Source of the DNA: Escherichia coli
GTDB lineage: Bacteria; Pseudomonadota; Gammaproteobacteria; Enterobacterales; Enterobacteriaceae
DNA length: 64,000 nucleotides
NCBI RefSeq assembly: GCF_050920415.1
Contig: NZ_CP169309.1
Strand: one strand, 5' to 3'
Positions 1 through 53,795 of this stretch are shown piece after piece (within the stretch, counting starts at the first letter, position 1; each line of letters starts with the position of its first letter). The notes beneath the pieces were generated by a model. It was not told the origin of the DNA. It did not search any database and saw only the letters and a program-made list of their open reading frames with translations. The translations under genes were made by a program, and so were the position numbers.

Positions 1-1
1 C

Positions 2-18698: not shown

Positions 18699-18785
18699 GC
18701 CCGGATGGTGGAATCGGTAGACACAAGGGATTTAAAATCCCTCGGCGTTCGCGCTGTGCGGGTTCAAGTCCCGCTCCGGGTACCA
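18699..18785 (+). tRNA. leuZ: tRNA-Leu (TAA)
   Basis: 87 nt GCCCGGATGGTGGAATCGG...GGGTACCA, anticodon TAA; 3' two thirds lie in the prophage att repeat. Confidence 0.95.
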
Positions 18786-18855
18786 TGGGAAAGATAAGAA
18801 TAAAATCAAAGCAATAAGCAGTGTCGTGAAACCACCTTCGGGTGGTTTTTTTGTA
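18731..18855. repeat. attL: 125-bp direct repeat (3' 55 nt of tRNA-Leu plus the tRNA-operon terminator)
   Basis: Identical to 53671..53795. Confidence 0.9.
18829..18853 (+). terminator. glyW-cysT-leuZ operon terminator
   Basis: Hairpin ACCACC-TTCG-GGTGGT followed by TTTTTTT; duplicated at 53769..53793 inside attR. Confidence 0.7.
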
Positions 18856-20429: not shown

Positions 20430-21539
20430 TCACTCTGTTTCCGCTATCCATTCCGGGATTTTTGCTTCAAGCTCAAGCTGCGTGGTAAAGCCGCTGTTAT
20501 CAATGGTGTGCTCGGCTTTTGCAATAATCCAGTCCTGATTGTCGATGTCACTTTTGAAGCCTGTCACCGTGCCATGCATTTCGGGATAGAGTTCTGCACG
20601 TCCACGCGCCAGCGTGATGGAGAATGATGCGGCTCCGCGTTGTAGTTGCTGCCACTTTGCCGCCGCTGCGCGTCTTGCTGCCTGCTCGTTCTGATAAGTC
20701 TTGCGTAACACAAACACATTGCCTTCCGCGCCTTCCATATAATCACCTTCACGGCTGCTGCTTTTCTCCTTTTTGGGTTTTGGCGGTTTACGGCGTTTTA
20801 CGCTGACTTTTTTCTTTTTCCCGTAATTAAGATCAAGCCAGTAGGCGCGTACCCCCGTATACGCCTCGCGGTCAGCAATACGGAACTGATGGCGATCGCC
20901 GCTGCTGCGTGTAATGGCGAACGAGGGCAACGGCTGGCCCTGTGCGTTCACGCCACCACCTGGCATGATGAATAACAGATTGCCGCTTTTTACCGTGGTG
21001 ATTGCGCCCAGCATTTCCGCCATGCGCGTAAGGAAGGACATGTCGCTTTCTTCGGTCTGGTCGGCGTGGTCGATTTCAATATCCATCAGCATTTCGCTGA
21101 TTTGCGGTTTCAGGCCGTATCGGTGAGCAATTGCAGACACCACGCGTTCAACGGTCACATCATGCCAGGATACTTCGCGCTTGACGTTAAATTCATCCCG
21201 AAAATCTGCGCTTCTGGCTGAAATGGTCAGTCTGTCGGGCGGTCCTTCATGAGCAATTTCATCAACAATGTAAGTGCCTTTTTCTGTCAGCGGTTCTCCT
21301 TTCCAGCCAATGAGAACCGTCAGGCGCGCGCCCCGTGGCGGTAGCTGCAACTGACCATCTGCATCATCCAGCGTGATGGTGAGCTGGTCCGCCTCAAATC
21401 CCCGGTTGTCGGTCAGTGACAGGCTCATCAGGCGCTCTGCCACGCCTGACAGCGTTTTACCCTCCGCGAGAATATCAAAATCCGGCATTTTCACGGGGTC
21501 TGTGCCCTGACTGAGCAATTGCATGGTGGTGTCGGTCAT
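20430..21539 (-). CDS. Tail protein gpD (late control gene D family)
   Basis: About 369 aa from MTDTTMQLLS; recalled gpD family features; ORF-track N-terminal extension to 21671 judged spurious. Confidence 0.8.
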   Translation of the reverse strand: MTDTTMQLLSQGTDPVKMPDFDILAEGKTLSGVAERLMSLSLTDNRGFEADQLTITLDDADGQLQLPPRGARLTVLIGWKGEPLTEKGTYIVDEIAHEGPPDRLTISARSADFRDEFNVKREVSWHDVTVERVVSAIAHRYGLKPQISEMLMDIEIDHADQTEESDMSFLTRMAEMLGAITTVKSGNLLFIMPGGGVNAQGQPLPSFAITRSSGDRHQFRIADREAYTGVRAYWLDLNYGKKKKVSVKRRKPPKPKKEKSSSREGDYMEGAEGNVFVLRKTYQNEQAARRAAAAKWQQLQRGAASFSITLARGRAELYPEMHGTVTGFKSDIDNQDWIIAKAEHTIDNSGFTTQLELEAKIPEWIAETE

Positions 21540-21696
21540 CTGTTCCCTCCCTGTGCGGCATGGTCGCATGTGCGTGCGGAGGGGGTTACTGCTTTTTGTT
21601 GTCGCCGTGGCGGGAGAACGGCGCAGGGGTGAGATTACGCGCGTGGTGGGTGATGATTGTTGCCGAATCATTTAACGGATACAAGGGGCTGAAGCT

Positions 21697-22881: not shown

Positions 22882-23393
22882 TGGCTGTACCAAAACATCT
22901 TCGCTTTTTTACGCTGTTTGTGAATGGTGAAAACGAAGTGGGTAAGGTGACGTCCGTCACTCCACCTAAACTGACGCGCAAAACTGAAAGCTATCGTGGC
23001 GGTGGCATGATGGGGGCGGTGAGTATCGACCTCGGTCTTGATGATTCTGCGCTTGATGCGAGTTTTGTCATGGGGGGCGCAGTTCGTGAGCTGTTCCTTA
23101 AATATGGCGGCACGATTGACAGCACGTTGCTGCGTTTTGCGGGTGAATACTACACCGATGCAGAAAGTGATCTGTATGAAATCGAGATGCGCGGGCGTGT
23201 GACGGAAATTGATATGGGGGAAGCCAAACAGGGCGAAGCCACATCACACACTTACGCTGTCAAAAACACCTACTACAAGCTGAGCGTTAACGATCGTCCG
23301 CTGTGGGAAATCGACCTGCTGAACCACATCTACCGGAAGGACGGCAAGGACATCGTGCCTGATCGCATCCGTTCCGCGCTTGGGCTTGGCTGA
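22881..23393 (+). CDS. Tail tube protein (P2 FII-like)
   Basis: 170 aa ORF immediately after the sheath gene with overlapping stop/start. Confidence 0.85.
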   Translation: MAVPKHLRFFTLFVNGENEVGKVTSVTPPKLTRKTESYRGGGMMGAVSIDLGLDDSALDASFVMGGAVRELFLKYGGTIDSTLLRFAGEYYTDAESDLYEIEMRGRVTEIDMGEAKQGEATSHTYAVKNTYYKLSVNDRPLWEIDLLNHIYRKDGKDIVPDRIRSALGLG

Positions 23394-23449
23394 TAAGTAA
23401 TATGCAGGCGGCGCAGTGCGTCGCCTCTGACTGAAAAAGGAGACAACTG

Positions 23450-23824
23450 ATGCAAAACATCAATACTGAAACCCGGAATAACGCCGTGGCGGATGATGTG
23501 ACGGCAGGTGAGGATATGGCTGTCGAACGTGGCGTAAAACTGGCCCGACCAATTGAGCGCGGTGGCGAAAAAATCACGTATGTGGAAATTACCGGGGCTA
23601 TTGAGCAGGCTGGATCTCTGCGTGGTCTGTCGCTGTCTGATGTGCTGAATCTGAAAGCGGATACCATGTTCACGCTGTTGCCTCGCGTGACCTCGCCACG
23701 ACTGGATGAAGTGATGATTAAAAAAATGTCGTCACGCGATTTTATTCAGTTGTGCGCTGTGGCTGTAAATTTTATGAGCGAGCCAGACTCTGGCGCGAAG
23801 AGCGTGCAGGAGACGGCAGCGTAA
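23450..23824 (+). CDS. Tail assembly chaperone gpE-like
   Basis: Position between tube and tape measure; carries a slippery heptamer near its 3' end. Confidence 0.6.
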   Translation: MQNINTETRNNAVADDVTAGEDMAVERGVKLARPIERGGEKITYVEITGAIEQAGSLRGLSLSDVLNLKADTMFTLLPRVTSPRLDEVMIKKMSSRDFIQLCAVAVNFMSEPDSGAKSVQETAA

Positions 23825-23988
23825 TCACCCTGGTGTGCTTTGAGCACATCGAAGATCTGGTGGCGGATATTGCCGCCATTTTTAACTGGTCGCCCGCCGA
23901 AATCTTCATGATGACGCCCGGCGAAGTGGTTAGCTGGCGTGAGCGGGCGGCACTTCGCAGCGGGAATGCAGACAATGAAGACTCTTGA
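23752..23988 (+). CDS. E' extension frame of the gpE+E' frameshift fusion chaperone
   Basis: -1 frame ORF overlapping the gpE 3' end and the tape-measure 5' end; analogous to P2 E/E' and lambda G/GT. Confidence 0.55.
   Translation: MRCGCKFYERARLWREERAGDGSVITLVCFEHIEDLVADIAAIFNWSPAEIFMMTPGEVVSWRERAALRSGNADNEDS
23767..23773 (+). other. Programmed -1 ribosomal frameshift site (A_AAT_TTT)
   Basis: X_XXY_YYZ heptamer in the gpE zero frame; the -1 frame stays open to 23988 (E' extension). Confidence 0.6.
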
Positions 23989-26776
23989 TATCCGGGTCGC
24001 TTTCAGCGCCGTTGACAGACTGACCCGGCCTGCCGAAAACGCCCGCCGCCTGATGGGGCAGTTTGGTGACTCCATCCAGCGAACGCAGGGGGCGATCAAA
24101 AATCTCGAGCGTCAGGCGCGTTCATTTGAGCGCGCCCGTGACGCTGTCAGTAAAGCGGATGCGAGCATCGTGAAAGCACGACGCCAGCTTAACGCCCTTA
24201 ATCAGTTACAACGCACGGGTACAGTGCTCAGCGAAAAACAACAAAAGCTGATGCAGCAGTTAAGCACCCGGCTTGAACGCCTGAATGAATCGCGCACACG
24301 GGAAATTCAGAAAATGCGGGAGCTTGGCGGAGAGCTGAAACGCCACGGCATTTCCCTGACAGGCAGCGATAACACCATCCAGCAGGCCATCAGACGCACC
24401 GAACAGTACAACAACCAGCTTGAACGCGAACGGCAGACGCTTGCGCGTGTAACGCGGGCGCGTGAGCGGTATTCGCGCGCGCAGGAAACTGCTGGAAAAC
24501 TGAAAACAGGTGGTGCGCTGGCAATTGGTGCGGCAGCGGCTGGCGGCTATGCTGCCGGGCGTTTTTTGCAGCCTGCGATCGGGTTCGGGAAAGAGATGTC
24601 CCGCGTTCAGGCACTGACGCGAATCGACCAGAACAGCCCACAGTTTAAGGCGCTGCGTGAGCAGGCGTTAAAACTTGGCTCTGAAACGCAGTTCACCGCA
24701 GGCGATGCCGCCAGTGGACAGGCATTTCTTGCAATGGCTGGCTTCACACCGCAGGCCATTCAGGCTGCGCTTCCGGGCGTGCTGAGCATGGCAACGGCTG
24801 GCGGCATGGATCTCGGCGAGACGGCGGATATTGGCTCAAATATCCTGACGCAGTTCGGCCTTTCTGCTGACCAGATGGACCGGGTTGGTGACACACTCAC
24901 CGCAGCGTTTACCCGTACCAACACTGACCTTCGCGCACTGGGCGAAACCATGAAATATGCAGGTCCGGTGGCGGGTAAGCTGGGAATATCGCTGGAGCAG
25001 GCCGCAGCGATGGCGGGCGTGCTGGCGAATATGGGTATCAGAGGGAGTGATGCCGGGACGGCAATGCGTGCCAGCCTGGCTCGTCTGGCATCACCGCCAA
25101 AGGCAGCAGCAGAGGCGCTGAAAGAGCTTGGTGTGGCAGTTTCTGACGCGAACGGCAAAATGCGCCCGATGGAGGATGTGCTGGCCGACCTTTATAAAGC
25201 CACCCGCAAATACGGGGAAGTTGACCGGGTATCCTTCTTTAAGGACATCGCCGGGGAAGAGGCTTTCACATCATTTATGGCCCTCGTTGATGCAGCGGGT
25301 GACGGGTCCTTACCCAAACTGAGAAAAGAACTTGAAGGCGCGCGCGGTGAGGCTGAACGCACAGCAAAGGTTATGGCCAACAACCTTGACGGCGATCTGA
25401 AATCACTCGGCAGTGCATGGGAAGGGTTGCGCATCCGCATTGCAGATCTGATTGACGGTCCGCTGCGTTCTGTCACGCAGTGGCTCACGCGTGTGGTATC
25501 AAAGGTGACGGCGCTGGCGCAGGCCCATCCCGCACTGACGCGCCAGCTACTGATAGCAGGCGGTGCGTTGCTGGCAATGACTGCAACGGTTGGCTCGTTG
25601 TCGCTGGCTATTGGTGTGCTTGCTGGTCCGCTGGCAAAACTGCGTCTTGGTTTTTCCCTCCTGACCGGATCAATGAATGCTGTCAGGGTCCTGCCAGCAC
25701 TATGGGGAATGGTGACGGGTTCCGTTTCTTTGCTGGGAGGTGCTATCGGGGCGCTGTTCAGTCCGGTTGGTCTTATCGTGGCTGCGCTTGCCGGAGCTGC
25801 CATTCTTATCTGGAAATATTGGGATCCCATCAGGGCATTTTTTGCCGGGGTGTTCGGCGGGATTATGGAAAGGCTGACCCCGTTGCGCGAAACCTTTGAA
25901 CGGTTTGGCCCTGTTTTTGACGTAATCGGAAGCGGGATCAGCCAGGTGTTTAACTGGTTTAAATCGCTGCTGTCACCGATGGAGTCCAGCAAGGAAACGC
26001 TGGATAAATGTACCAGTGCTGGCGAGATATTCGGTAACGTTCTTGGCGGTGCGTTACAACTTGTTCTGACACCTGCAAAAATGTTGCTGGATACGCTGGC
26101 GTGGATACTTGAAAAGCTCGGTGTGCTTCCGGATGAAGCGGAAAGGGCGCGCAAGAAAATCGAAGACGCACAGCGTGCGGCCATTCTTCAGGACAAGGTT
26201 GCCTTGCTTCAGGGGGACCTGGCGAAAATCAATCCGCCGAAGCCTGTGGAAAATGGCACCGGAGGTGATAAACCCAAAGACAACAAACCGCTCACAGACA
26301 GCAATACCGGTACGCTACGCAGACTCAGCAAGATTGCTGATAACACAGGTAAGCTGGTTGATGAGACGAAAAAACGCATTGGCCCTGGCGATATTGTCTT
26401 TAAGAACCTGCCCCGCGCACTTGCTGTTCGTGGGGAGTGGCAGGAGCGGAAGATTGCGCAGGTCAGTAAGCCTGCTTCCGCAATCAACATCACACCTGTG
26501 GTCCCGACTCCTCTGCCTCCGGCGCTGGTCCCTGTTGTTGCGGCCAGCTCCCGCCCGGTGGCGGAGGCCATACGATCGCCAGTGGCATCAGTTCCTGCAA
26601 CTTCCCGTAACCGGGAGCCTGTTGTCTCCGGATTTGGCGGTGAAATTCATGTTCATCTGCATAACGTTGTTACGCAGAATCCCCGCGAACTGGCGAAACT
26701 GGTCGGTGAAATGGTCAGGGCAGAATTGGAACGACGCGACCGTGCCGGACGTGGCAGTTTTTACGATAAAGATTGA
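23939..26776 (+). CDS. Tail tape measure protein (gpT-like)
   Basis: 945 aa with coiled-coil-rich N-terminal part and Gly/Ala-rich hydrophobic segments; position. Confidence 0.9.
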   Translation: MSGRHFAAGMQTMKTLDIRVAFSAVDRLTRPAENARRLMGQFGDSIQRTQGAIKNLERQARSFERARDAVSKADASIVKARRQLNALNQLQRTGTVLSEKQQKLMQQLSTRLERLNESRTREIQKMRELGGELKRHGISLTGSDNTIQQAIRRTEQYNNQLERERQTLARVTRARERYSRAQETAGKLKTGGALAIGAAAAGGYAAGRFLQPAIGFGKEMSRVQALTRIDQNSPQFKALREQALKLGSETQFTAGDAASGQAFLAMAGFTPQAIQAALPGVLSMATAGGMDLGETADIGSNILTQFGLSADQMDRVGDTLTAAFTRTNTDLRALGETMKYAGPVAGKLGISLEQAAAMAGVLANMGIRGSDAGTAMRASLARLASPPKAAAEALKELGVAVSDANGKMRPMEDVLADLYKATRKYGEVDRVSFFKDIAGEEAFTSFMALVDAAGDGSLPKLRKELEGARGEAERTAKVMANNLDGDLKSLGSAWEGLRIRIADLIDGPLRSVTQWLTRVVSKVTALAQAHPALTRQLLIAGGALLAMTATVGSLSLAIGVLAGPLAKLRLGFSLLTGSMNAVRVLPALWGMVTGSVSLLGGAIGALFSPVGLIVAALAGAAILIWKYWDPIRAFFAGVFGGIMERLTPLRETFERFGPVFDVIGSGISQVFNWFKSLLSPMESSKETLDKCTSAGEIFGNVLGGALQLVLTPAKMLLDTLAWILEKLGVLPDEAERARKKIEDAQRAAILQDKVALLQGDLAKINPPKPVENGTGGDKPKDNKPLTDSNTGTLRRLSKIADNTGKLVDETKKRIGPGDIVFKNLPRALAVRGEWQERKIAQVSKPASAINITPVVPTPLPPALVPVVAASSRPVAEAIRSPVASVPATSRNREPVVSGFGGEIHVHLHNVVTQNPRELAKLVGEMVRAELERRDRAGRGSFYDKD

Positions 26777-26782
26777 GGAGTC

Positions 26783-27277
26783 ATGGCCATGATGATGATC
26801 TACGGCATGTTTGTTTTTGAGCTGCGCACATTGCCGCATCAGCAGTTACAGCAAAACAAAAGCTGGCGGCATGTGAAAAATGAACGCGTTAACCGTTCAG
26901 CAAGCTGGCAGTATATCGGGGCAGGCGATGATCGCATCGTTCTTTCTGGTGTGCTTTATCCTGAAATTACAGGTGGCGAAGTATCGCTTTCGTTGCTGAC
27001 CACGCAGGCATATACAGGACGCCCCTGGCCTCTGATTGATGGTGTCGGGCAGATTTACGGCATGTATGTCCTGACCGGAACGAATACGACCCGCTCCGAG
27101 TTTGATCGCTACGGTAAGGCGAAAAAGATAGAATTTTCACTGACCCTTGAACGCTGTGATGAGGATTTGCGGGAGCGCCTGCAATCCTCATCGTTCAGCG
27201 ATATGCTGTCCGGCTTCAAAGATAAGGTCACATCATCCCTTAACAGCGCGGCCAGCTCCGTTAAAGGGCTGTTTTGA
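26783..27277 (+). CDS. Tail protein gpU-like
   Basis: 164 aa ORF directly after the tape measure. Confidence 0.75.
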   Translation: MAMMMIYGMFVFELRTLPHQQLQQNKSWRHVKNERVNRSASWQYIGAGDDRIVLSGVLYPEITGGEVSLSLLTTQAYTGRPWPLIDGVGQIYGMYVLTGTNTTRSEFDRYGKAKKIEFSLTLERCDEDLRERLQSSSFSDMLSGFKDKVTSSLNSAASSVKGLF

Positions 27278-27284
27278 TTAACGC

Positions 27285-27314
27285 AAAACCGCTAATGGTC
27301 AGATTAGCGGTTTT
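27285..27314. terminator. Bidirectional hairpin terminator between gpU and the invertase
   Basis: Perfect 11-bp stem AAACCGCTAAT/ATTAGCGGTTT with 6-nt loop, between convergent genes. Confidence 0.6.
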
Positions 27315-27903
27315 CATTTTCCTGAGTCTGCCTGGTTGTTTCTTCAGCCTGTATATCGCCTACAGGGTGATAACGATAAATCGTCGATATGCCGATGTCG
27401 TAAATGATCGCCAGTTGTTTCCTGTCATGACCGTTTTTAATCAGCCTCGCTATTTGCTCGTGTTGTTCTTTTGTCAACTTCGGGCGACGTCCGCCAATGC
27501 GCCCCCGTGCGCGCGCTGCCGCCAGCCCGGCCAGTGTACGCTCTACAATTAATTCACGTTCCATTTCGGCTAAAGCCCCCATGACGTGAAAAAAGAAACG
27601 CCCCATGGGTGTTGATGTGTCAATGCTGTCCGTCAGACTACGGAAATTAACACCTTTTTCCCGCAATTCCTCAATAAGCGTGATCAGGTGTTTCATACTT
27701 CTGCCCAGTCTGTCCAGCTTCCAGACAACCAGCGTATCTCCTTCTGATAGCGTTCTGATCAGTTTTTTCAATCCCGGTCTGGCTGATTTCGTTCCGCTGA
27801 TTTTATCTTCAAAAATCAGTTCACATCCTGCGCACTCCAGCGCGTTACGCTGCAATTCTGTATTCTGGTCATTTGTTGATACGCGGACATAGCCAATAAG
27901 CAT
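27304..27903 (-). CDS. Serine-recombinase DNA invertase (Pin/Gin/Cin/Hin family)
   Basis: 199 aa starting MLIGYVRVSTNDQNTELQ; catalytic Ser in the VRVS motif; C-terminal HTH; closely resembles e14 Pin as recalled. Confidence 0.95.
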   Translation of the reverse strand: MLIGYVRVSTNDQNTELQRNALECAGCELIFEDKISGTKSARPGLKKLIRTLSEGDTLVVWKLDRLGRSMKHLITLIEELREKGVNFRSLTDSIDTSTPMGRFFFHVMGALAEMERELIVERTLAGLAAARARGRIGGRRPKLTKEQHEQIARLIKNGHDRKQLAIIYDIGISTIYRYHPVGDIQAEETTRQTQENENR

Positions 27904-27958
27904 GATGGATCCCCTGAATAAAAACCGGGGATGATGCCAGTTAGCCGTAATCTCTGCA

Positions 27959-27984
27959 TTTTCTTAAACGTTGGTTTGGGAGAA
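27959..27984. repeat. Invertase crossover site (gix/hix-like), right-hand copy
   Basis: TTTTCTTAAACG-TT-GGTTTGGGAGAA; the 14-mer 27971..27984 is the inverted repeat of 29777..29790; encodes VGLGE. Confidence 0.6.
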
Positions 27985-28440
27985 GGTGCTCCAGCTATTG
28001 GCGTTCCGTTCTTCTGGCCGTCCGCCGCAATGCCAGATACCGTAATCGAAAGCTGGTCCGGCATGGTGTTTTTGAAGTTCAACGGCGCGAAATTCTCTGC
28101 CACTGATTACCCTGTGCTGGCGAAAGTGTTTCCTTCGCTGGTATTACCTGAAGCCCGCGGTGATTTCATTCGTATCTGGGATGATGGCCGTGGTGTTGAT
28201 AGTGGCCGTGCGTTACTTTCCGCGCAATCAGACGATTTCAAAACGCACGAGCATAAAATTTTAGGGCTAAATGGAAGTGGCAGTAATGTAGTGTTTGGCA
28301 CCGTTTCGAATGCTTCTCCATTATATACCAGCGGCGTTAGTCAGCCGGGTGGAAGTGCTTTGCCCGCTTTTCAAAACCCAGGCGGTACTGAAACGCGTCC
28401 CCGTAACATCGCATTCAACTTTTTAGTAAGGGCTAAATAA
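27985..28440 (+). CDS. Silent alternative tail-fiber C-terminal cassette (Sv'-like)
   Basis: Open frame continuing from the crossover site with no credible own start; would fuse to the fiber constant region after inversion. Confidence 0.55.
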   Translation, partial: GAPAIGVPFFWPSAAMPDTVIESWSGMVFLKFNGAKFSATDYPVLAKVFPSLVLPEARGDFIRIWDDGRGVDSGRALLSAQSDDFKTHEHKILGLNGSGSNVVFGTVSNASPLYTSGVSQPGGSALPAFQNPGGTETRPRNIAFNFLVRAK

Positions 28441-29033
28441 TGAAACCTGTTTTTGATGAAAATGGACTGGCTACAGTGCCGGGTGATATGCGTTGTTTTT
28501 ATTATGATGCAGTAACGTATGAATATACGGGCTGGTCTGATGAATATATTAATACTGGTATAAGTATGCCCGCCTGTTCCACTGGTATTGACCCTGGCGA
28601 AAACATTCCGGGAAAAGTGGCTGTATTTACAGGTAAGGGATGGAGCCATGAAGAGGACCATCGCAATGAGACTGTTTACTCAATCGAAAATGGCGCAGCT
28701 GTTACAGTGGATTATATCGGTGCCATCAAAAACGGTTATGTCACGCTTTCACCGTTAACGCCATATGATAAATGGGATGGTGAGAAATGGGTGACAGATA
28801 CTGAGGCACAACACGGTGCCGCAGTAGAAGCGGCAGAAGCACAGCGTCAGCCACTGATTGATGCTGCAATGGCTTCCATCAGTCTGATTCAGCTGAAATT
28901 ACAGGCCGGGCGGAAGCTGACGCAGGCAGAAACCACCCGGCTTAACGCCGTGCTTGATTACATTGACGCGGTGACGGCAACAGATACGAGCACCGCTCCG
29001 GATGTCATCTGGCCTGAACTGCCGGAGGCGTAG
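28440..29033 (+). CDS. Tail fiber assembly protein, alternative copy (U'/tfa')
   Basis: 197 aa with C-terminal motif TSTAPDVIWPELP shared with the convergent tfa gene. Confidence 0.8.
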   Translation: MKPVFDENGLATVPGDMRCFYYDAVTYEYTGWSDEYINTGISMPACSTGIDPGENIPGKVAVFTGKGWSHEEDHRNETVYSIENGAAVTVDYIGAIKNGYVTLSPLTPYDKWDGEKWVTDTEAQHGAAVEAAEAQRQPLIDAAMASISLIQLKLQAGRKLTQAETTRLNAVLDYIDAVTATDTSTAPDVIWPELPEA

Positions 29034-29439
29034 GCCATTCAATATCTGGAGCACTGGAGGTATCAACCAGTTCCAGTGCGTCCAGATAATCCAGCCACAA
29101 ATTATATTGCGCCAGTTCCTCACCTTTCAGACGACCAATAGCCGCTTTACCAGGCCATTGCTTGGTATTCATATATTCGTTGGACTGATTAATCAATTGC
29201 TGTTTTTTCAATTCGGCTGCGGCAATCTGTTCCTCATGTGTTGGTGGTGGAATTTCAGACCATGCAGGAAAACCATTTTCCTCAGCGATACGGATTTTTC
29301 CTTTCGGCGGTAATCCGGAAAACTCAATATACACCTGCTCATCAACTTCAACAGCATCATCTGGCCATGAATTTACATTGATGTAGTCATCCTTAAGCGC
29401 AGGATTCACAAAAATATTTAAAGATGGACTAAAAAACAC
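29005..29439 (-). CDS. Tail fiber assembly protein (gpG/Tfa-like)
   Basis: 144 aa directly downstream of the fiber gene; 3' end overlaps the alternative copy convergently. Confidence 0.8.
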   Translation of the reverse strand: MFFSPSLNIFVNPALKDDYINVNSWPDDAVEVDEQVYIEFSGLPPKGKIRIAEENGFPAWSEIPPPTHEEQIAAAELKKQQLINQSNEYMNTKQWPGKAAIGRLKGEELAQYNLWLDYLDALELVDTSSAPDIEWPTPPAVQAR

Positions 29440-29440
29440 A

Positions 29441-30922
29441 TCACCCTCCTATAGCAACATAACAGCCCGATACAGGATTTGCGGCAGTCGCTACGCTGGA
29501 AAAACCACGAAAGCCGCTTTTTGTGATTGCGGAGGCAGATAGTATTCCGGCACCCGAAGGTGTATGCCCCACGTGGCTGGCAACCATCACGTAGCACGCC
29601 GACGGAAAAGCGAAAGGGAAATTGTTTAAATATCCCGCATCATCCCCCAGACTTCCCCCAAACTGCCCCACTCCCCACTGGATAATAAGTGGTCTCCGAA
29701 CGCCAGAAATAATTAATGGAATTGCTACATACCCATTCACCAACATAGCGCCGGTTGTTGCGCCAGCCAGAGCCAATTCCCCCAAACCAAGGTAATCAAG
29801 AACTCCCTGAGTGCTGGTTTTACCAAGAATGGCACGTCCAACACTTGTCAACGCGGTTAACGCGGCACGATCTGCCCCTGTAAAATATGGGAGTTTATCT
29901 GCTGATGTAGCAAGCTCCGCCAGCGCCGTCAGGGTGGCATCCTTCGGTTGCTTACCCGCAAGCGCGTTAGTCATGGTGGTCGCAAAATTCGGGTCATTGC
30001 CCAGCGCCGCAGCCAGTTCGTTCAGCGTGTTCAGTGCATCAGGTGACGAATCTACAAGTGCGGCAATCGCGGCCATAACGAAAGCCGTGCTTGCGATCTG
30101 GGTACTATTAGTCCCCTGTGGCGCTGTTGGTGTTGTTGGCGTTCCGGTCAGTGCCGGGCTGTTTAATGGTGCTTTCTTGCTCGTTTCATCCATTACCGCC
30201 TTAACAGCTTTTGGTGTCGCTGCCAGCGTTTCAGACGTGCTGTTCGTGGCGCTACTGAGCTGAACAATCCCTTTTTGTGTAGTGGTGGCGTTCTGGGCGG
30301 TATATTTCCCGTTAGCCAGGTCATATGCAGCCTTAACCGCTTTCGGTGTTGCGGCCAGTGTTTCTGATTCACTGTTAATTGCACTGCTTAACTGAGTAAA
30401 ACCTTTTACGGTCAGCGAGGCGTCCGGGTGACGTCGTGACTGTTCGTGCTCTGATATTTTATCATCCACATATTTGCGGGTTGCCAGAACCACAGACGGG
30501 TCGATTTTCAGCGTGATGGCTTCGGTGTTCGTGACAACCAGAATCATGCGGATAGTCTGGGTGCGTCCACTGCCTTCCTGCAACTGCGGTTTGTACGTTT
30601 CCGGGCAGTTTGCCACCGCAATGAGTACACCTTCATCATCATAAAGCCCAATCTCACGGATCCAGAATCCTCCCTCGTTTTCAGGGATGATTTGCTCCGC
30701 AATAATCTGGCTCTGATTGTTAGGGTCAACACTCAGAAGATTCAGCGGTGCAATGCGTTTCTGGTTAATCAGTTTTGTTTGTGCAGGGTCTGGTGTTGGT
30801 AACACACCATTTGCATCACCAACGGCCATTTGCGTCAGATTCAGCTTACTGCCGAGCATCGTCGCGTTAGCCAGTCGTGCCGCGCCCTGATTAGTCAGAA
30901 TGGCGTAGTATTTCACTGTCAT
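29441..30922 (-). CDS. Tail fiber protein (gpH-like), currently expressed variant
   Basis: 493 aa with conserved N-terminal region and repeat-rich shaft; C-terminal ~110 aa lie inside the invertible segment. Confidence 0.85.
   Translation of the reverse strand: MTVKYYAILTNQGAARLANATMLGSKLNLTQMAVGDANGVLPTPDPAQTKLINQKRIAPLNLLSVDPNNQSQIIAEQIIPENEGGFWIREIGLYDDEGVLIAVANCPETYKPQLQEGSGRTQTIRMILVVTNTEAITLKIDPSVVLATRKYVDDKISEHEQSRRHPDASLTVKGFTQLSSAINSESETLAATPKAVKAAYDLANGKYTAQNATTTQKGIVQLSSATNSTSETLAATPKAVKAVMDETSKKAPLNSPALTGTPTTPTAPQGTNSTQIASTAFVMAAIAALVDSSPDALNTLNELAAALGNDPNFATTMTNALAGKQPKDATLTALAELATSADKLPYFTGADRAALTALTSVGRAILGKTSTQGVLDYLGLGELALAGATTGAMLVNGYVAIPLIISGVRRPLIIQWGVGQFGGSLGDDAGYLNNFPFAFPSACYVMVASHVGHTPSGAGILSASAITKSGFRGFSSVATAANPVSGCYVAIGG
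29777..29802. repeat. Invertase crossover site (gix/hix-like), left-hand copy
   Basis: TTCCCCCAAACC-AA-GGTAATCAAGAA inside the fiber gene; encodes LGLGE on the minus strand. Confidence 0.6.
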
Positions 30923-31527
30923 GCGTTTACTCTCAGATTATCAATTAAATGAATGGCCGGGGCAGGGAAATAATCCCCTTCGACAATAATGGACTCCGGG
31001 GTGTAGGGATAAACCGTCAGGGCATCGCCGTGATAGCATCCCGTACCAACGAAAATCTTTCCGTTCACACTCAGGCTGATCGCCAGCCCCGTCAGATGGC
31101 GACTTACTGGTTTTGCATCCGCAATAAGGCGCTCAAGTTCCTGATACATTTCATCGGTGATGCCCTGATCAAGTACTCCGACAACAATGCGAAATGTTCC
31201 TGGCTCCTCGTTGAGTTGCCACCACTCCTTTACTTCAATCAGGTAGCCGAGAGGCTCCACGGCTCTTCGCAGTGCGCTGATGGTCCCTTTGTGTCGGTGT
31301 ATCAGCCATGCATCACGAATCACCTGTCGCTTTGTCTCTTCCGGCCAGTTGCGATCCCAGCGGTCAACGGAAAACGCCCAGGCGAGATAAGGCAGCAGAT
31401 GCACCGGGCAGGTGTCCGGCGACCACAGCGTGTTGAGGTCTACCGGAATGTCTGTAATGCGTGTTCCGACGGCTTCGGCACAACGCATGAAATTGCTGGC
31501 TGATGGCGGTAACAGTGAATTACTCAT
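30919..31527 (-). CDS. Baseplate assembly protein gpI-like
   Basis: Start trimmed to MSNSLLPP; position between fiber and gpJ. Confidence 0.75.
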   Translation of the reverse strand: MSNSLLPPSASNFMRCAEAVGTRITDIPVDLNTLWSPDTCPVHLLPYLAWAFSVDRWDRNWPEETKRQVIRDAWLIHRHKGTISALRRAVEPLGYLIEVKEWWQLNEEPGTFRIVVGVLDQGITDEMYQELERLIADAKPVSRHLTGLAISLSVNGKIFVGTGCYHGDALTVYPYTPESIIVEGDYFPAPAIHLIDNLRVNA

Positions 31528-32416
31528 TACGCCCACCTTCGCTGATGGTGAATGACTCACAACGCGCCGCCTGTATGTCGCTGATGGCCATATTCTGTGT
31601 GGGTTCGATTATTTCCACGCGTTGCACACCGTGCACATGCAGTGCGGCAGCAATGGCGGACAACGCCACGTCCTGACCGATAAGCCCCTGTTCAGCCAGC
31701 CACTTCCTGAATGACGATTCCGCCGCGGCCAGAATAGGTTCGGATTCCGGACCGGGGTAAAAGTACAGTTTTGCATTCAGCCGCCATGTCACGATGCTGG
31801 CGCTCTGTACGGTCAGGCGGTCGGCCACCGGGCGGGTATCCTCTGCATTCAGAACGGCGCGAACGGTATTAAGCAACGCCTCCGTTGCTGTGCCGTCGCC
31901 TTCAGTGGACAGGATGGAAACCGTCACATTTGCCGGAGACGGACTGATAGCCCGCGCATCACGCACCAGACCGCTGGCGCTGCGGGCAAAATACTCGTAT
32001 GCACCTGACGGGCCAGCAACACTCAGGCCGTCGTACGCCCGTTGCGCCCGCAGTCTCAGCGAGGTGTCGCTTTCCATCACCGCGTCGGTGGTATCCGTTG
32101 CCGGAGTGATAACCAGGCGCTTTGTGTTCATATTGCCTGCGAGGTTGTCCAGGTCTGTCCCGGCGCTGTGGCTTAACATGCAGGCGCGTGCACCCTCATT
32201 GACCCGCTGGCGTAACAGCATTTCACGAAACGACATGGTTTGAGCGATAACGTTAAGGGGTTCCGATTCCAGCTCCAGCGCGGCGGAGACGGCTTCACGC
32301 TGTTCGGCAGGATAGGACGCAATCATCATGGCCTTTGTGTCAGCCAGAATTGCCTCAAAGTCAGGCTCCGCGATGATGGCGGGTTCCGGTAACTGTGAAA
32401 GGTCAACGGCGGGCAT
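31520..32416 (-). CDS. Baseplate protein gpJ-like
   Basis: 298 aa, position and size. Confidence 0.85.
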   Translation of the reverse strand: MPAVDLSQLPEPAIIAEPDFEAILADTKAMMIASYPAEQREAVSAALELESEPLNVIAQTMSFREMLLRQRVNEGARACMLSHSAGTDLDNLAGNMNTKRLVITPATDTTDAVMESDTSLRLRAQRAYDGLSVAGPSGAYEYFARSASGLVRDARAISPSPANVTVSILSTEGDGTATEALLNTVRAVLNAEDTRPVADRLTVQSASIVTWRLNAKLYFYPGPESEPILAAAESSFRKWLAEQGLIGQDVALSAIAAALHVHGVQRVEIIEPTQNMAISDIQAARCESFTISEGGRNE

Positions 32417-32419
32417 GAT

Positions 32420-32770
32420 TTACTCCCTCAGCGTGATGGTTAATTCAACATTCTGCATGGTCTGCATGACAGTGCCCGACAGCGTCACCCCGGCGCGGCC
32501 TCCCGCTTTCCAGACAACGTCGATGGCATCCAGGGCAATGCGGGGTTCCCATCGTGTCAGCGCAATCACGGCAGCACTCATGCATTGCAGACGCGTGGTG
32601 TTATTCATGGGTTCGTCAATCAAATCAGGCACAAGGCTGCCATATTCCCGTCGCATAACCCGGCTTGCCAGCGGGGTGGTCAGGATGTCCCTGGCTGACT
32701 GTTTCAGGTGCTCCATATCGTTCAGGTTTCCCGTTCCGTCCGGGTTCATTCCTGTGTAGCGGGTTGTCAC
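32420..32770 (-). CDS. Baseplate wedge protein gpW-like
   Basis: 116 aa, position and size. Confidence 0.8.
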   Translation of the reverse strand: MTTRYTGMNPDGTGNLNDMEHLKQSARDILTTPLASRVMRREYGSLVPDLIDEPMNNTTRLQCMSAAVIALTRWEPRIALDAIDVVWKAGGRAGVTLSGTVMQTMQNVELTITLRE

Positions 32771-33348
32771 TGCGGGCCTCCTGTCGAATCGCTGCCACCT
32801 TTCACGCCACCGTGTTTATGCGTATGCACGGTAATGCCGTTTGAGGTGAAATTGCCGCCGCTGTGCGTGATATTGCCGCTCATCTTTCCCCCTTTTGTGA
32901 CGTCAAGCGTCGCCGTTCTCAGAAGGTCTGTGCATTCCACGACGGGCGTGTCCAGTGTCACGCTGACGGATGCCTGTAAAGTGGCCGTTTTCATGCCGCT
33001 GGCGCTCAGTGCGCCTGCGTCCGCGTCGTAGCGGAACACCGCGCCGTCCGGCGCGCTGATCACGATTTCTTTCAGGCTTTTGCCGGGGGCCGGATTGGCA
33101 TCACTCCACAGGCTGCCAATTATCATGGCGGTTTCCGGGTTGCCGCCAATGCAGGCAATTACCACCTGTTCGCCTGGTGATGGCGGCAGCCACACATTGA
33201 AGGCTCCCGCGCGCGTGGTGTTCCAGCGCAGCCAGCCTGTTTCCAGTTCGCCGCTGCGAACGCGCACGCGCCAGGACTTCTCATCAACTTCAGAGATGAT
33301 CCCGGTGCGGATGATATTGCTCAGCAGTCGCATGAGTTCTGCGCTCAC
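32767..33348 (-). CDS. Baseplate spike/assembly protein gpV-like
   Basis: 193 aa, position upstream of gpW. Confidence 0.8.
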   Translation of the reverse strand: MSAELMRLLSNIIRTGIISEVDEKSWRVRVRSGELETGWLRWNTTRAGAFNVWLPPSPGEQVVIACIGGNPETAMIIGSLWSDANPAPGKSLKEIVISAPDGAVFRYDADAGALSASGMKTATLQASVSVTLDTPVVECTDLLRTATLDVTKGGKMSGNITHSGGNFTSNGITVHTHKHGGVKGGSDSTGGPQ

Positions 33349-33989
33349 CGTACAGCCTCCGCAATCCGGCCCAGCACCGTGTTATAAATCAGGCGTTCAT
33401 CTGCCTGACTGATGCCCAACAGCTCACGTACCGGGTAATCGGTGAAAATGCCCGGCGCAACCTGATCGCGCTCACCGAACTGATGAACGCGTGCAATACG
33501 TGCGGCCACGCCGCTGTAACCCACCGTCACACCGGAAGCATCTGCACGGGCTTTCAGGTAGCGGGCGGTGCGCAGTTTTACGAACATGGGGACGCGCTTT
33601 GTGCTGTCCTGGTTGATGCGCCGGGTGCGTATTTCCAGAAAGCGGTCGATGTCATCCCGGTAAAACGTGCGGATGCTGTTTTTATCCTCATCCCACCCGG
33701 TGATGGTTCGCCCGTATTTCCCCGTGTCGTGATGCCAGTTTTTCAGCGTGCGTGCTTCGTTATTCCAGATAAAGCGAATGCGCTCCTGTATCCTGGTTAC
33801 GCGGCGTCTGCGTGGTGTCCATGCAGTCCCGTCCGGCGCTTTCTGTGACCGGATACGTGCCTGCTGGGCGCGACGTAAATCCTGTGCCAGCTTTCTGGCG
33901 ATGTTATTGATGGCCTGCTGATTCAGGCTGTCGCGGATAGCCTCAAAGGTTTCATCCACGCGGGTGAATGCCTTATCCATCGCTTTCAC
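33345..33989 (-). CDS. Virion morphogenesis / tail completion protein (gpS position)
   Basis: 214 aa, position between gpR and gpV; longer than I recall for P2 gpS. Confidence 0.6.
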   Translation of the reverse strand: MKAMDKAFTRVDETFEAIRDSLNQQAINNIARKLAQDLRRAQQARIRSQKAPDGTAWTPRRRRVTRIQERIRFIWNNEARTLKNWHHDTGKYGRTITGWDEDKNSIRTFYRDDIDRFLEIRTRRINQDSTKRVPMFVKLRTARYLKARADASGVTVGYSGVAARIARVHQFGERDQVAPGIFTDYPVRELLGISQADERLIYNTVLGRIAEAVR

Positions 33990-34440
33990 CCCACGTCACA
34001 TCCTGGAATACATGCGACCAGTCGCCTTCGGAAGAGGGCAGACGGGGTTTTGGCTCCGGCAGGTGTTCTGCCTGCGGTGTCCCCTGACTGCTGCGCGTGA
34101 TGCGAACGCGTTCCCGCAGAGGGAGCGTAAACAGGAGATCGGCGCTGTCATCGTCATTGATAACGGCGGAGAATTTGATGTCCTGATTACGCTCCGGATT
34201 GAGCAACAATTGCGGCTGATTTTCGGATAACCACGCCAGTAGCGGCAGCGTGAGGTCGTCCAGCTCCCCGGCGTAATCCATGACAAACATCACCATCTGA
34301 TAGCGGTAAACAAACGAGGGCGTTTCTCCGGTCGTTTCAATGTTGCCGCTCTCCACGAAAATGGTGAATTTTTCCGGGTTGGCCTGACACCATCGGCATG
34401 AACGGGTCATGGCTTCACGCAGGGAATCAGTTTTCAGCAT
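33973..34440 (-). CDS. Tail completion protein gpR-like
   Basis: 155 aa, position after the lysis genes. Confidence 0.7.
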   Translation of the reverse strand: MLKTDSLREAMTRSCRWCQANPEKFTIFVESGNIETTGETPSFVYRYQMVMFVMDYAGELDDLTLPLLAWLSENQPQLLLNPERNQDIKFSAVINDDDSADLLFTLPLRERVRITRSSQGTPQAEHLPEPKPRLPSSEGDWSHVFQDVTWGESDG

Positions 34441-34717
34441 GGTTGTTGTCCTCGTTGTTCAGTCGTTGCAGCCTGCGCTGTTCCAGTAATTCAATGGCCC
34501 GTTTATCCGCGTTACAGGTTTCCAGTGCATCCAGAAGGCGGTCGCCCCATATACCGAGATTTCCCCATGTGGGAGGGTCAGGGAAGGGGGGCGGCGTTAC
34601 CGGAATGGTCAGCGTCTGCGGTATAAGCCGGACTGACGGCGCTGGCAGTGGCGCGTTCTGCGTGCCTGCGCAGCCTGTCAGTAAAACGAGCGTCAGGCAA
34701 AGCGTGGGCGCATTCAT
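34427..34717 (-). CDS. o-spanin (Rz1/LysC-like outer-membrane lipoprotein)
   Basis: Lipobox LLTGC followed by a Pro-rich mature region; starts inside the i-spanin gene in another frame. Confidence 0.6.
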   Translation of the reverse strand: MNAPTLCLTLVLLTGCAGTQNAPLPAPSVRLIPQTLTIPVTPPPFPDPPTWGNLGIWGDRLLDALETCNADKRAIELLEQRRLQRLNNEDNNHAEN

Positions 34718-34985
34718 CTTTTGCAATATCGTTGCGTAGCTGTTCACGTCTTACCTCTCCGTCCTGATTGCGTTGCTGATTTTCCACGCGGAGTTGCGCC
34801 AGCACCTGCTGCATATCCTGTACCCCGGCGCTGATGATATTCAGGGTGTCGGCGGTACTTTTCAGGGTGCTGGCCTGCGCTTCGTTTCTGGCGTTCTCCC
34901 GGCCCAGCGACCACGACAGACGCATGGATGTTCCCCATCCGGCAATCAGAAGGAAAGCGACGCCAAGCGTGGGCCAGAGCTTCAT
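34578..34985 (-). CDS. i-spanin (Rz/LysB-like)
   Basis: N-terminal TM helix (LWPTLGVAFLLIAGW) followed by charged coiled-coil-like region; start trimmed to MKLWPT. Confidence 0.6.
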   Translation of the reverse strand: MKLWPTLGVAFLLIAGWGTSMRLSWSLGRENARNEAQASTLKSTADTLNIISAGVQDMQQVLAQLRVENQQRNQDGEVRREQLRNDIAKDECAHALPDARFTDRLRRHAERATASAVSPAYTADADHSGNAAPLP

Positions 34986-35374
34986 GCCGGATAGGCTCCG
35001 TGTGGTAACTGAAAATGCGGTCCGTCTTTCAGGGTCTTCCAGTCGCCGCCCCATTCCACCGGAATATTCAGCTCCCGGCTGGCCTGTCTGAATGCTGCTG
35101 CGATTTTTTCGTACAGCGGCCATTCCCATGACACCTGGCTGCCGACATAAGCCACAACATCCACGGCATGCCCCGTAAGGTGGCGGCTGTTCATGGTCTG
35201 GCTCTTACCTGTGGCCACAAGTTGCTTCTGGCGGTAACGGCTGCGCAACCCTTCGGTGATACCAAAATCCACTTCCGAGATTTCCAGTGCCCGTCGGGTC
35301 ACTTTCACCAGATCAGGATTTACGCCCTGCAAATTCTTTTCGCTCCGGCTGCTGAATTTAAATGTGTTGCTCAT
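34982..35374 (-). CDS. Endolysin, peptidase M15 family (T5-type L-alanyl-D-glutamate peptidase-like)
   Basis: 130 aa with zinc-peptidase motif SRHLTGHAVDV; resembles recalled T5 endolysin. Confidence 0.8.
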   Translation of the reverse strand: MSNTFKFSSRSEKNLQGVNPDLVKVTRRALEISEVDFGITEGLRSRYRQKQLVATGKSQTMNSRHLTGHAVDVVAYVGSQVSWEWPLYEKIAAAFRQASRELNIPVEWGGDWKTLKDGPHFQLPHGAYPA

Positions 35375-35694
35375 TCGTCCTTCTCCTTCACCCTGCGATT
35401 AAAGGCCGCAATAACCTTGTCGCGTGCTTTCTCTGCGCCCATAAAACCGATTGATGCGCCGATAAACGTCACGGCATCTTCAGGAAACCCGAAGAAGCGC
35501 AACGACCCGGCCACGGCCATGGCAAGAACGCCGCACGCCAGCGATCCCGTTACGGTCTGAACCAGTGTTCGTCCGTCATAAAGACTCATCAGCGCGGAAA
35601 TGCTGACTGCCGCGCCTACTGCATACACCGTTGGCAGGTGGTCAAAGAGCCACGCAATAACCTGCTCTGTGATCCCTGTTTGAATGGTGCTCAC
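35371..35694 (-). CDS. Holin (putative)
   Basis: About 107 aa with hydrophobic segments and charged C-terminus, immediately upstream of the endolysin; start uncertain. Confidence 0.55.
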   Translation of the reverse strand: MSTIQTGITEQVIAWLFDHLPTVYAVGAAVSISALMSLYDGRTLVQTVTGSLACGVLAMAVAGSLRFFGFPEDAVTFIGASIGFMGAEKARDKVIAAFNRRVKEKDE

Positions 35695-35696
35695 TG

Positions 35697-52562: not shown

Positions 52563-53564
52563 ATGTCGGTTCGTAAGATTCCATCAGGTAAATGGCTTTG
52601 CGAATGTTATCCCTACGGGGCATCGGGAAAACGCATTCGTAAACAGTTTGCGACAAAAAGTGAGGCGCTCTCTTATGAGCGCCGTTTAATGAATAGTAGA
52701 GTTGGAGACGAGTTTCAAGATGGTTCTGGTCCTCGTCTTTCTGAGTTGATTGCTCGTTGGTTTGAGATGTACGGTAAAACCTTGTCCTCTGGTGCAGAGC
52801 GCAAAGTCAAACTTGAGGCGATTTGTTCCAGGCTGGGAGATCCATTTGCTTCTCAGTTTGACAAAAATATGTTTGCTACTTATCGGGAAAGAAGGCTATC
52901 AGGAGAATGGAATCCCAAGGGGAAGAAAAAACTTAGTGAAGCAACCGTTAATCGCGAGCAGTCATATCTACATGCTGTTTTTGCCGAACTGAAGCGCCTT
53001 GGGGAGTGGTCTGGTGAAAACCCCCTGACTGGTATTCGCAAGTTTCGTGAGGAAGAAAAGGAACTGGCGTTTCTGTATGTAGATGAGATTGAACGCCTTC
53101 TGATTGCGTGTGATGAGTCACGGAATAAAGATTTGGGGGTTGTTGTCCGTATTGGGCTTGCGACTGGTGCTCGGTGGAGTGAAGCAGAAGGATTAAAGCA
53201 ATCTCAAGTACTGCCCGGTCGAATCACATTTGTTAAAACTAAAGGAAAGAAGAACCGCACTGTACCGATTTCACCTCAATTGCAGGCTATGCTTCCTAAA
53301 AAACGAGGAGCGCTATTTTCACCATGTTATGAGGCTTTTGACGCTGCAATTAAGAGAGCGAAGATCGAGCTTCCTGATGGGCAATTAACTCATGTGCTAC
53401 GTCACACGTTTGCCAGTCATTTTATGATGCGGGGCGGAAATATTCTTGTGTTGCAAAAAATACTGGGGCATAGCGATATAAAAATGACTATGCGTTATGC
53501 GCATTTTGCTCCAGGTCATTTAGAGGCTGCTGTTGAATTGAACCCTTTTGACAATAGAGGGTAA
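52563..53564 (+). CDS. int: Tyrosine integrase (P2 Int-like)
   Basis: 333 aa with catalytic box HVLRHTFASHFMMRGGNILVLQKILGHSDIKMTMRYAHF; adjacent to attR. Confidence 0.9.
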   Translation: MSVRKIPSGKWLCECYPYGASGKRIRKQFATKSEALSYERRLMNSRVGDEFQDGSGPRLSELIARWFEMYGKTLSSGAERKVKLEAICSRLGDPFASQFDKNMFATYRERRLSGEWNPKGKKKLSEATVNREQSYLHAVFAELKRLGEWSGENPLTGIRKFREEEKELAFLYVDEIERLLIACDESRNKDLGVVVRIGLATGARWSEAEGLKQSQVLPGRITFVKTKGKKNRTVPISPQLQAMLPKKRGALFSPCYEAFDAAIKRAKIELPDGQLTHVLRHTFASHFMMRGGNILVLQKILGHSDIKMTMRYAHFAPGHLEAAVELNPFDNRG

Positions 53565-53670: not shown

Positions 53671-53795
53671 TTTAAAATCCCTCGGCGTTCGCGCTGTGCG
53701 GGTTCAAGTCCCGCTCCGGGTACCATGGGAAAGATAAGAATAAAATCAAAGCAATAAGCAGTGTCGTGAAACCACCTTCGGGTGGTTTTTTTGTA
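53671..53795. repeat. attR: 125-bp direct repeat (partial tRNA-Leu 3' end plus terminator)
   Basis: Identical to 18731..18855. Confidence 0.9.

Follow-up and report, generated by a model that had tools for sequence, protein, structure and literature searches.

Several prophages of E. coli switch the end of a tail fibre gene by inverting a DNA segment. In the P-region of the e14 element of E. coli K-12 (PinE, stfP/tfaP, tfaE/stfE), two C-terminal cassettes are accompanied by two chaperone genes, and the latter, tfaP and tfaE, converge with an overlap of 29 bp. The invertase gene is located outside the segment, pointing away from it, and the invertase-proximal crossover site has an AA core. Each of these traits recurs in the locus described below. 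Among P2-like phages (Peduoviridae), invertible tail fibre segments are found in pro483 and in the P2-like prophages of EPEC E2348/69. The Xuanwuvirus P88_4B11 has the gene order seen here: fibre, chaperone, second chaperone, second cassette, invertase and then converging tail genes. Inversion in e14 and in the EPEC P2-like prophages has been demonstrated by sequencing and, for e14, also by PCR (PMC4272514).

We have analysed a stretch of 64,000 nucleotides of E. coli DNA (the window), which a first-pass annotation had described as carrying a Pin-family invertase beside an invertible tail fibre segment. We are highly confident that the locus is a site-specific inversion switch of the Pin/Gin/Cin type, which belongs to a complete P2-like prophage and serves its tail fibre. 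Its parts are as follows.

27285..27314, no strand: hairpin with a 12-bp stem and A and T runs at its sides (inverted repeat, 100% complementary, with a terminator-like match)
27304..27903, minus strand: Pin/Gin-type serine DNA invertase of 199 aa, to all appearances intact (open reading frame list, Pfam and identity)
27818..27885, minus strand: enhancer-equivalent region, presumed Fis-dependent, at coding nt 19-86 of the invertase gene (homology to the P7 cin enhancer)
27959..27984, minus strand: left crossover site of 26 bp, the one nearer the invertase gene, TTCTCCCAAACC-AA-CGTTTAAGAAAA, with its core dinucleotide at 27971-27972
27972..29789, no strand: invertible segment, 1818 bp between crossover centres (inverted-repeat pair)
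27985..28440, plus strand: alternative C-terminal cassette in the silent state, 151 aa (weak Pfam Collar match; PHROG 3100/523, C-terminal regions of tail or collar fibres)
28440..29033, plus strand: tail fibre assembly chaperone of the silent cassette, 197 aa (Pfam Caudo_TAP, 3.2e-26; PHROG 105)
29005..29439, minus strand: tail fibre assembly chaperone of the current tip, 144 aa (Pfam Caudo_TAP, 4.8e-35; PHROG 188)
29441..29776, minus strand: currently expressed variable C-terminal tip, fibre aa 383-493, 111 aa (Pfam Gp53-like_C, 3.6e-11)
29777..29802, plus strand: right 26-bp crossover site, within the fibre gene, TTCCCCCAAACC-AA-GGTAATCAAGAA, core dinucleotide at 29789-29790
29777..30922, minus strand: P2 gpH-like tail fibre, constant N-terminal region (aa 1-382), nearly all of it outside the segment

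The invertase consists of a Resolvase domain (Pfam, aa 3-135, 1.6e-51) followed by HTH_7 (aa 138-180, 3.4e-12), and it belongs to PHROG 125, DNA invertase (5e-99). Its match to Mu Gin (PDB 4m6f) is ungapped over residues 1-185 (E = 1.7e-91). It is 87% identical to the invertase of Xuanwuvirus P88_4B11, 81% to PinE of e14, 75% to Cin and 72% to Mu Gin, in keeping with the Pin/Gin-like character first proposed for it. The active-site residues Y5, R7, S9, D64, R65 and R68 are kept, as are the basic residues K46, K47 and R50 of helix B (Hin numbering minus 1). Their Hin counterparts K47, K/R48 and K/R51 contact the enhancer and are reported to be specific to enhancer-dependent invertases (PMC3798978). 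These features support the assignment of the recombinase to the enhancer-dependent serine invertases of the Hin/Gin/Cin/Pin ('Din') family. No inactivating change, which the first-pass annotation would have counted against its reading, was found in the gene. In NCBIfam, neither the invertase nor the fibre, the cassettes or the chaperones had a match that passed a model's cut-off.

The 14-bp repeats noticed at the outset, TTCTCCCAAACCAA at 27971..27984 on the minus strand and TTCCCCCAAACCAA at 29777..29790 on the plus strand, are the only exact matches of the 14-mer in the 64 kb, where none are expected (100 shuffles). They are embedded, as had been claimed, in gix/hix-like 26-bp sites, both of the 12 + 2 + 12 architecture. 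The two sites are mutually inverted and share identical AA cores, which read TT (left) and AA (right) on the plus strand. The left site lies 55 bp from the invertase gene and matches the pin-proximal site of e14 (TTCTCCCAAACCAACGTTTATGAAAA) at 25 of 26 positions; on this comparison the crossover sites are of the e14 type. The inner half-sites differ by one base (TTCTCCC versus TTCCCCC), a difference usual in this invertase family. Both sites had been thought to encode LGLGE. This is true of the right site (fibre aa 378-382), whereas the left one encodes N-V-G-L-G-E, so that only GLGE is common to the two. The V codon of the left site is outside the segment, and 12 bp of the site itself lie in the intergenic flank, beyond any sequence that codes for fibre. 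In a search for a third site, such as a Min- or shufflon-like multiple inversion system would have, the sole match (23209..23222, with 2 mismatches) was at chance level and was rejected.

In its present orientation the whole fibre gene occupies 29441..30922 on the minus strand and encodes 493 aa. The constant part carries the Phage_tail_fib N-terminal domain and two Phage_fiber_2 repeats (Pfam). The segment of about 1.8 kb had been predicted to hold two alternative C-termini and two assembly genes, and the boundaries listed above agree with that prediction, down to the 29-bp convergent overlap of the chaperone genes at 29005..29033. No similarity is detectable between the current tip and the silent cassette, and the two fall into different domain families. 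The two chaperones are 36% identical, a likeness restricted to their C-terminal 72 aa. When the segment is inverted in silico, the silent cassette joins the fibre in frame, giving an uninterrupted protein of 533 aa. The current and flipped fibres share a prefix of 382 aa that ends in LGLGE. The silent cassette has no N-terminus of its own, and the ATG at 27931 merely yields a spurious ORF of 169 aa. The ORF 27931..28440 is best annotated not as an independent gene but as a second, alternative 3' end for the fibre gene, lacking a promoter. RefSeq labels for such a cassette ORF vary between a complete 'phage tail protein' and a pseudogene 'missing N-terminus'.

The first-pass annotation had left the recombinational enhancer unlocated. 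It can now be placed, by homology to P7 cin, at coding nt 19-86 of the invertase gene, the interval in which the P7 record annotates the cin enhancer. Over this interval the identity to P7 is 79% and that to Mu gin 82%, versus 63-65% in the rest of the gene. An alignment of six invertase genes contains two invariant blocks, nt 25-35 (27869..27879) and nt 73-83 (27821..27831), which are 48 bp apart. The distance from the first block to the crossover centre is 96.5 bp here and 95.5 bp in Mu. In Hin, the enhancer is about 100 bp from one site and its two Fis sites are about 47 bp apart (PMC3798978). Conservation at third codon positions across the six genes (6/18 within the enhancer versus 15/94; Fisher p = 0.10) is not significant and is suggestive only. 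A scan of the invertase 5' region with a generic Fis consensus (GNNYRWWWWWYRNNC, up to 2 mismatches) gave several ambiguous matches and could not define Fis sites by itself, so we relied on the homology to the annotated P7 element. By this homology, the 5' coding region of the invertase is expected to contain an enhancer of about 65 bp with two putative Fis sites 47-48 bp apart.

Both orientations are found among orthologous prophages, and the breakpoints coincide with these sites. In the O157:H7 strains BB24-1 and FRIK944, the flanks of the orthologous prophage are 100% identical, while a segment of 1917 bp (99.95% identical) is inverted in one relative to the other. The inversion breakpoints fall within TTGGTTTGGGAGAA. 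The junction predicted for the flipped form of the window is present as one contiguous match of 96-97% in 4 complete E. coli genomes, and 26 such genomes carry the entire segment at about 97% identity. In the O111:H2 strain 12A, the cassette that is fused to the fibre was considered as a copy of the silent one in the window. The junction-proximal 260 nt or so are about 96% identical there; the full-tip protein is 61% identical, and the cassette is therefore a related one, not the same. We infer that the segment inverts in the present strain as well. A practical corollary is that two assemblies of strains with prophages of this kind can disagree over the orientation of the segment without either being wrong.

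Could the switch have been inherited with its anatomy intact and yet have ceased to invert in this strain, for instance for want of invertase expression, leaving the second cassette a silent relic? The window, being a single sequence, displays one orientation. Some related loci do decay; the fibre gene of O157:H7 BB24-1, for instance, is annotated as fragments. Furthermore, no promoter is recognisable upstream of the invertase ATG: a scan of 27200..29900 gave no convincing sigma-70-like candidate, and the counts of promoters and terminators equalled the shuffle expectation. Weak expression from poor promoters is, however, typical of Gin/Cin-type invertases, and no interruption is seen in the invertase, in either site, in the enhancer-equivalent region or in any of the two cassettes and two chaperone genes. 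Near-identical loci are moreover found in both orientations. We consider the loss of inversion quite unlikely. Because the scan counts equal those in shuffled sequence, the weak hairpin at 27923..27942 on the minus strand is not claimed as a terminator and was dropped. The hairpin at 27285..27314, between the converging gpU-like and invertase genes, is probably a bidirectional terminator.

Far less credible still is the proposal that the repeats are a by-product of a conserved GLGE-coding motif in the two cassettes, the recombinase acting elsewhere, as a resolvase or on another prophage. The repeats do lie in codons of a conserved peptide. Many E. coli genomes contain several such modules, so that action of an invertase in trans is conceivable. 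A conserved peptide does not account for the left site, which is a full 26-bp site, 25/26 identical to that of e14, even though it reaches 12 bp into the intergenic flank. Nor does it explain why the breakpoints of natural inversions fall precisely on the repeats. The basic residues of helix B, which are reported to be specific to enhancer-dependent invertases (PMC3798978), likewise argue against this proposal.

The interpretation as an invertible tail fibre segment is thus upheld by the invertase, the sites, the in-frame flip and the two orientations of the orthologues. According to the model that we favour, the Pin/Gin/Cin-type switch, invertase dimers would bind the two inverted 26-bp sites. 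These complexes would come together in a synapse at the enhancer, which lies some 96 bp from the left site in the 5' portion of the invertase gene and to which Fis is presumed, from homology, to bind. Cleavage at the AA core and strand exchange by a 180-degree rotation of subunits would then flip the 1818-bp segment. In the present orientation, the late operon is predicted to yield the 493-aa fibre with the Gp53-like tip and the 144-aa chaperone. In the other, it would yield the 533-aa fibre with a collar-type tip and the 197-aa chaperone. Among the virions released by a population of lysogens, two adsorption specificities would then be represented. By analogy with Mu, P1 and related systems, inversion is expected to change host range.

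The host element is a complete P2-like prophage of 35 kb, integrated in tRNA-Leu, with full sets of structural, lysis, replication and integration genes and att repeats of 125 bp. Its late operon lies on the minus strand (homologues of P2 V-W-J-I-H) and enters the segment from the right. The exact combination of backbone and cassettes occurs in no complete RefSeq E. coli genome, the best coverage being 84% at 97% identity. Modules of this kind are frequent: many E. coli genomes have several, the median number of places in a genome being 2 and the highest 12-13. In E. coli MFDS1022581, which is 100% identical to positions 1-5000 of the window, the best match to the module (93.7%) is elsewhere in the genome. 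The segment is 97% identical in ETEC1730, where it sits on the canonical P2 gene order, in contrast to the P88/Xuanwuvirus-type layout here. The current 111-aa tip has weak matches in 13 Klebsiella phage records only among sequenced phages. Two readings are suggested by these data. Since the Gp53-like tip has almost no relatives among sequenced phage genomes, it may recognise a receptor new to characterised phages. Since nearly the same segment is found on two backbone layouts, the invertase and segment as a whole may move between P2-like backbones. Taken jointly, the two readings are tentative and rather doubtful. Were module mobility true, the module would not be bound to a lineage but would amount to a portable host-range cassette.

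The finding itself is already known, the locus being a commonplace and intact example of a familiar phage device. Its chief value is in correct annotation, with little significance beyond. For work on phage host range, it contributes a further natural example of two receptor-binding tips, each with its matching chaperone. The likeness to e14 is tempered by the nature of the elements, since e14 is a defective lambdoid remnant, whereas the prophage described here is complete and P2-like, with a P2 gpH-like constant part and other cassette sequences. The G segment of Mu resembles the present one in its 26-bp sites and in the position of gin, outside the segment with its 5' end beside a site, and S/U and S'/U' alternate by the same logic. 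In Mu, however, the segment is 3 kb, compared with 1.8 kb here, and the core is TC/GA instead of AA. The Mu chaperone genes do not overlap, unlike those of this locus, and the fibre backbone is unrelated. In the C segment of P1/P7, cin has the opposite orientation: it reads towards its segment, with cixL at the 3' end of the gene. The enhancer is therefore about 0.5 kb from the nearest site there, as against about 96 bp here. The Hin/hix system of Salmonella shares with this locus the recombinase subclass, the 26-bp sites, the AA core and the basic residues of helix B. Hin, however, is encoded inside its own invertible segment and flips a promoter, whereas the invertase described here is encoded outside the segment, and it is the C-termini of the tail fibre that would be swapped.

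The module lies in a P2-like prophage, and the following features are recognized in it:

27304..27903, - strand, invertase ORF (199 aa)
27959..27984, complement strand, left (invertase-proximal) 26-bp crossover site, TTCTCCCAAACC-AA-CGTTTAAGAAAA
27971..27984, - strand, left 14-mer, TTCTCCCAAACCAA, exact match to TTCYCCCAAACCAA
27985 onwards, in the ORF ending at 28440, + strand, silent cassette (alternative fibre C-terminus)
28440..29033, + strand, chaperone of the silent cassette (197 aa)
29005..29439, - strand, chaperone of the current tip (144 aa)
29441..30922, - strand, fibre ORF (493 aa), whose expressed C-terminus is the current tip
29777..29790, + strand, right 14-mer, TTCCCCCAAACCAA, exact match to TTCYCCCAAACCAA
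29777..29802, + strand, right 26-bp crossover site, inside the fibre gene, TTCCCCCAAACC-AA-GGTAATCAAGAA

The coordinates in the first-pass annotation agree with the ORF list, and the 14-bp inverted repeats that it placed within gix-like 26-bp sites are found as described. Both sites have the 12 + 2 + 12 organization of gix sites (Mu gixL and gixR were extracted alongside), with an AA core that lies inverted on the + strand (TT at 27971-27972, AA at 29789-29790). The distance from crossover centre to crossover centre is 1818 bp. The two 14-mers form the top inverted repeat (I1) returned by the repeat finder for the window and are its only exact copies of TTCYCCCAAACCAA, with 0 expected from 100 dinucleotide-preserving shuffles. 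The proposal that both sites encode LGLGE holds for the right one; the left site reads N-V-G-L-G-E, its V codon lying outside the segment, and GLGE alone is common to both. Another sequence, TTCCCCCATATCAA at 23209-23222 (- strand) in the tail tube gene, resembles a crossover half-site with 2 mismatches. It is probably meaningless, being at chance level (1.08 such matches expected).

An in-silico flip of the segment at its core dinucleotides joins fibre residues 1-382 (…DYLGLGE) in frame with GAPAIGVPFFW…RAK. This yields an uninterrupted fibre of 533 aa, with the 197-aa chaperone gene immediately after it. Inversion would leave the current tip and its chaperone as a silent, promoterless pair beside the invertase.

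The fibre begins with a P2 gpH-type collar-fibre domain and two Phage_fiber_2 repeats and ends in a Gp53-like_C domain (aa 412-492). In its PHROG hits (3100 and 523, E about 1e-50), the silent cassette aligns with the C-terminal regions of tail fibres and collar fibres; its Pfam Collar hit is weak, and comparison with the expressed tip shows no significant similarity. RefSeq annotates the cassette inconsistently (window 27931-28440; 3768-4229 in another comparison locus, L001; 2232-2774 in L004, from O157:H7 strain BB24-1): one version is a complete 'phage tail protein' that starts at a fortuitous upstream ATG and reads through the crossover site, the other a pseudogene 'missing N-terminus'. 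Among 50,697 phage records, only 13, all from Klebsiella phages, match the current 111-aa tip (41% identity over 59% of the query), and blastp gave no match between it and the Gp53-like cassettes found in three related prophages of E. coli; the tip itself is present in E. coli prophages, for example ETEC1730. Each of the small genes codes for a tail-fibre assembly protein of the Caudo_TAP family, and the two proteins are alike only in their C-terminal 72 aa (36% identity there). The ORF list also bears out the convergent overlap of 29 bp between the genes (29005..29033), which encodes a W-P-x-x-P C-terminal motif on both strands. Judging from its equal length in strain 1303, O157:H7, O111:H2 12A, pro483, ETEC1730 and e14, this overlap is a conserved oddity.

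As one sequence can show only one of the two states, other genomes were used. Native and in-silico flipped queries gave matches of comparable quality in complete E. coli genomes. The cleanest case of inversion is the O157:H7 pair BB24-1 and FRIK944: flanks of 2286 and 2675 bp are 100% identical, while the intervening 1917-bp segment is inverted and 99.95% identical. The breakpoints fall inside TTGGTTTGGGAGAA / TTCTCCCAAACCAA, and the invertase is 98% identical to that of the window. The flipped junction predicted for the window, taken as a 500-nt query made up of 260 nt from the silent cassette and 240 nt from the constant region of the fibre, is matched contiguously at 96-97% in four complete genomes. 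Inversion of e14 and of two P2-like prophages of EPEC E2348/69 has been demonstrated by whole-genome sequencing, and for e14 also by PCR (PMC4272514). BB24-1, with the segment oriented as in the window, has its fibre gene annotated in three pieces (L004 3812-5317), whereas FRIK944 (L005), with the opposite orientation, has one intact 544-aa gene, suggesting that in the O157:H7 lineage one of the two fibre fusions is disrupted.

The assignment of the adjoining gene to a Pin/Gin-like serine invertase is upheld by its Pfam Resolvase catalytic (1.6e-51) and HTH_7 (3.4e-12) domains and by a gapless alignment with the crystallised Mu Gin sequence (E = 1.7e-91). Its identity is 87% to the invertase of Xuanwuvirus P88_4B11, 81% to e14 PinE, 81-82% to the P2-like invertases of pro483 and ETEC1730, 79% to that of Fels-2, 75% to P7 Cin and 72% to Mu Gin. 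Y5, R7, S9, D64, R65 and R68 are all kept, and no inactivating change is seen in the sequence. K46, K47 and R50 are also present; they correspond to Hin K47, R48 and K51, helix-B basic residues described as specifically conserved among enhancer-dependent invertases (PMC3798978).

A Fis-type enhancer had been expected in the 5' coding region but not located; homology now points to a candidate at nt 19-86. In the P7 record the cin enhancer is annotated at nt 19-86 of cin, equivalent to 27885..27818 in the window's invertase coding sequence. Identity over these nucleotides is 79% to P7 and 82% to Mu gin, against 63-65% for the remaining gene. An alignment of six invertase genes reveals two invariant blocks, TCAACAAATGA (nt 25-35) and GCAGGATGTGA (nt 73-83), 48 bp apart, and block I lies 96.5 bp from the left crossover centre (95.5 bp in Mu). 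Blocks and spacing fit the published enhancer, a 65-bp element whose two terminal Fis sites have their centres 47 bp apart and which lies about 100 bp away from the closest crossover site (PMC3798978). Scanning with a generic Fis motif gave ambiguous hits, and excess conservation at synonymous sites over the enhancer did not reach significance (p = 0.10).

The prophage is bounded as follows:

18731..18855 and 53671..53795, 125-bp perfect direct repeat
52563..53564, integrase gene adjoining the right repeat copy

Within the repeat lie the 3' portion of tRNA-Leu(taa) and the hairpin downstream of it, and the two copies are presumably attL and attR of a ~35-kb P2-like prophage. The full P2-like gene set is carried: portal, large and small terminase, scaffold and capsid; spanin; proteins for tail completion and the baseplate, homologous to P2 V, W, J and I; sheath, tape measure, gpU- and gpD-like tail proteins; and a gpA-like replication nickase. 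Within 20430-27277, the genes for sheath, tube, tape measure and the gpU-like protein are on the + strand and run towards the invertase and towards the baseplate and fibre genes (- strand, 29005-36400); the gpD-like gene (20430..21671) is likewise on the - strand. Pro483 and ETEC1730 have the canonical P2 order, opposite to this layout, whereas Xuanwuvirus P88_4B11 has its fibre, invertase and converging tail genes arranged as in the window. The whole segment is about 97% identical in 26 genomes, including ETEC1730, where it sits on a backbone of canonical P2 order; the exact backbone-plus-cassette combination occurs in no complete RefSeq E. coli genome (best, 84% coverage at 97% identity). 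The chromosome on either side is that of E. coli: window positions 1-5000 (yedK, yedF, yedE, yedD, amyA) are 98.6-100% identical to E. coli genomes. Going by MFDS1022581, the only complete genome matching 1-5000 at 100%, the window starts (positions 1-367) within ltrA, the reverse transcriptase/maturase gene of a group II intron. The other genomes among the matches listed align only from about 452-457, so the intron insertion beside yedK looks rare.

The observation made in the first-pass annotation is thereby confirmed and its interpretation as a fibre-switching segment supported, with Fis dependence, activity in this strain and an effect on host range being putative. Those defining features of the Hin/Gin/Cin/Pin family and of invertible fibre segments that sequence can address are all present. 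The device is widespread and has long been known, this copy of it is well preserved, and thousands of E. coli genomes already have it annotated, albeit clumsily: 3914 of 5426 complete E. coli genomes match some part of a 3751-bp query that spans the module together with its flanks. Among named systems the e14 P-region comes closest, whose invertase-proximal site is identical to the left site at 25/26 positions, with an AA core in both, and which shares the arrangement of cassette and chaperone as well as a convergent chaperone-gene overlap of the same 29 bp.
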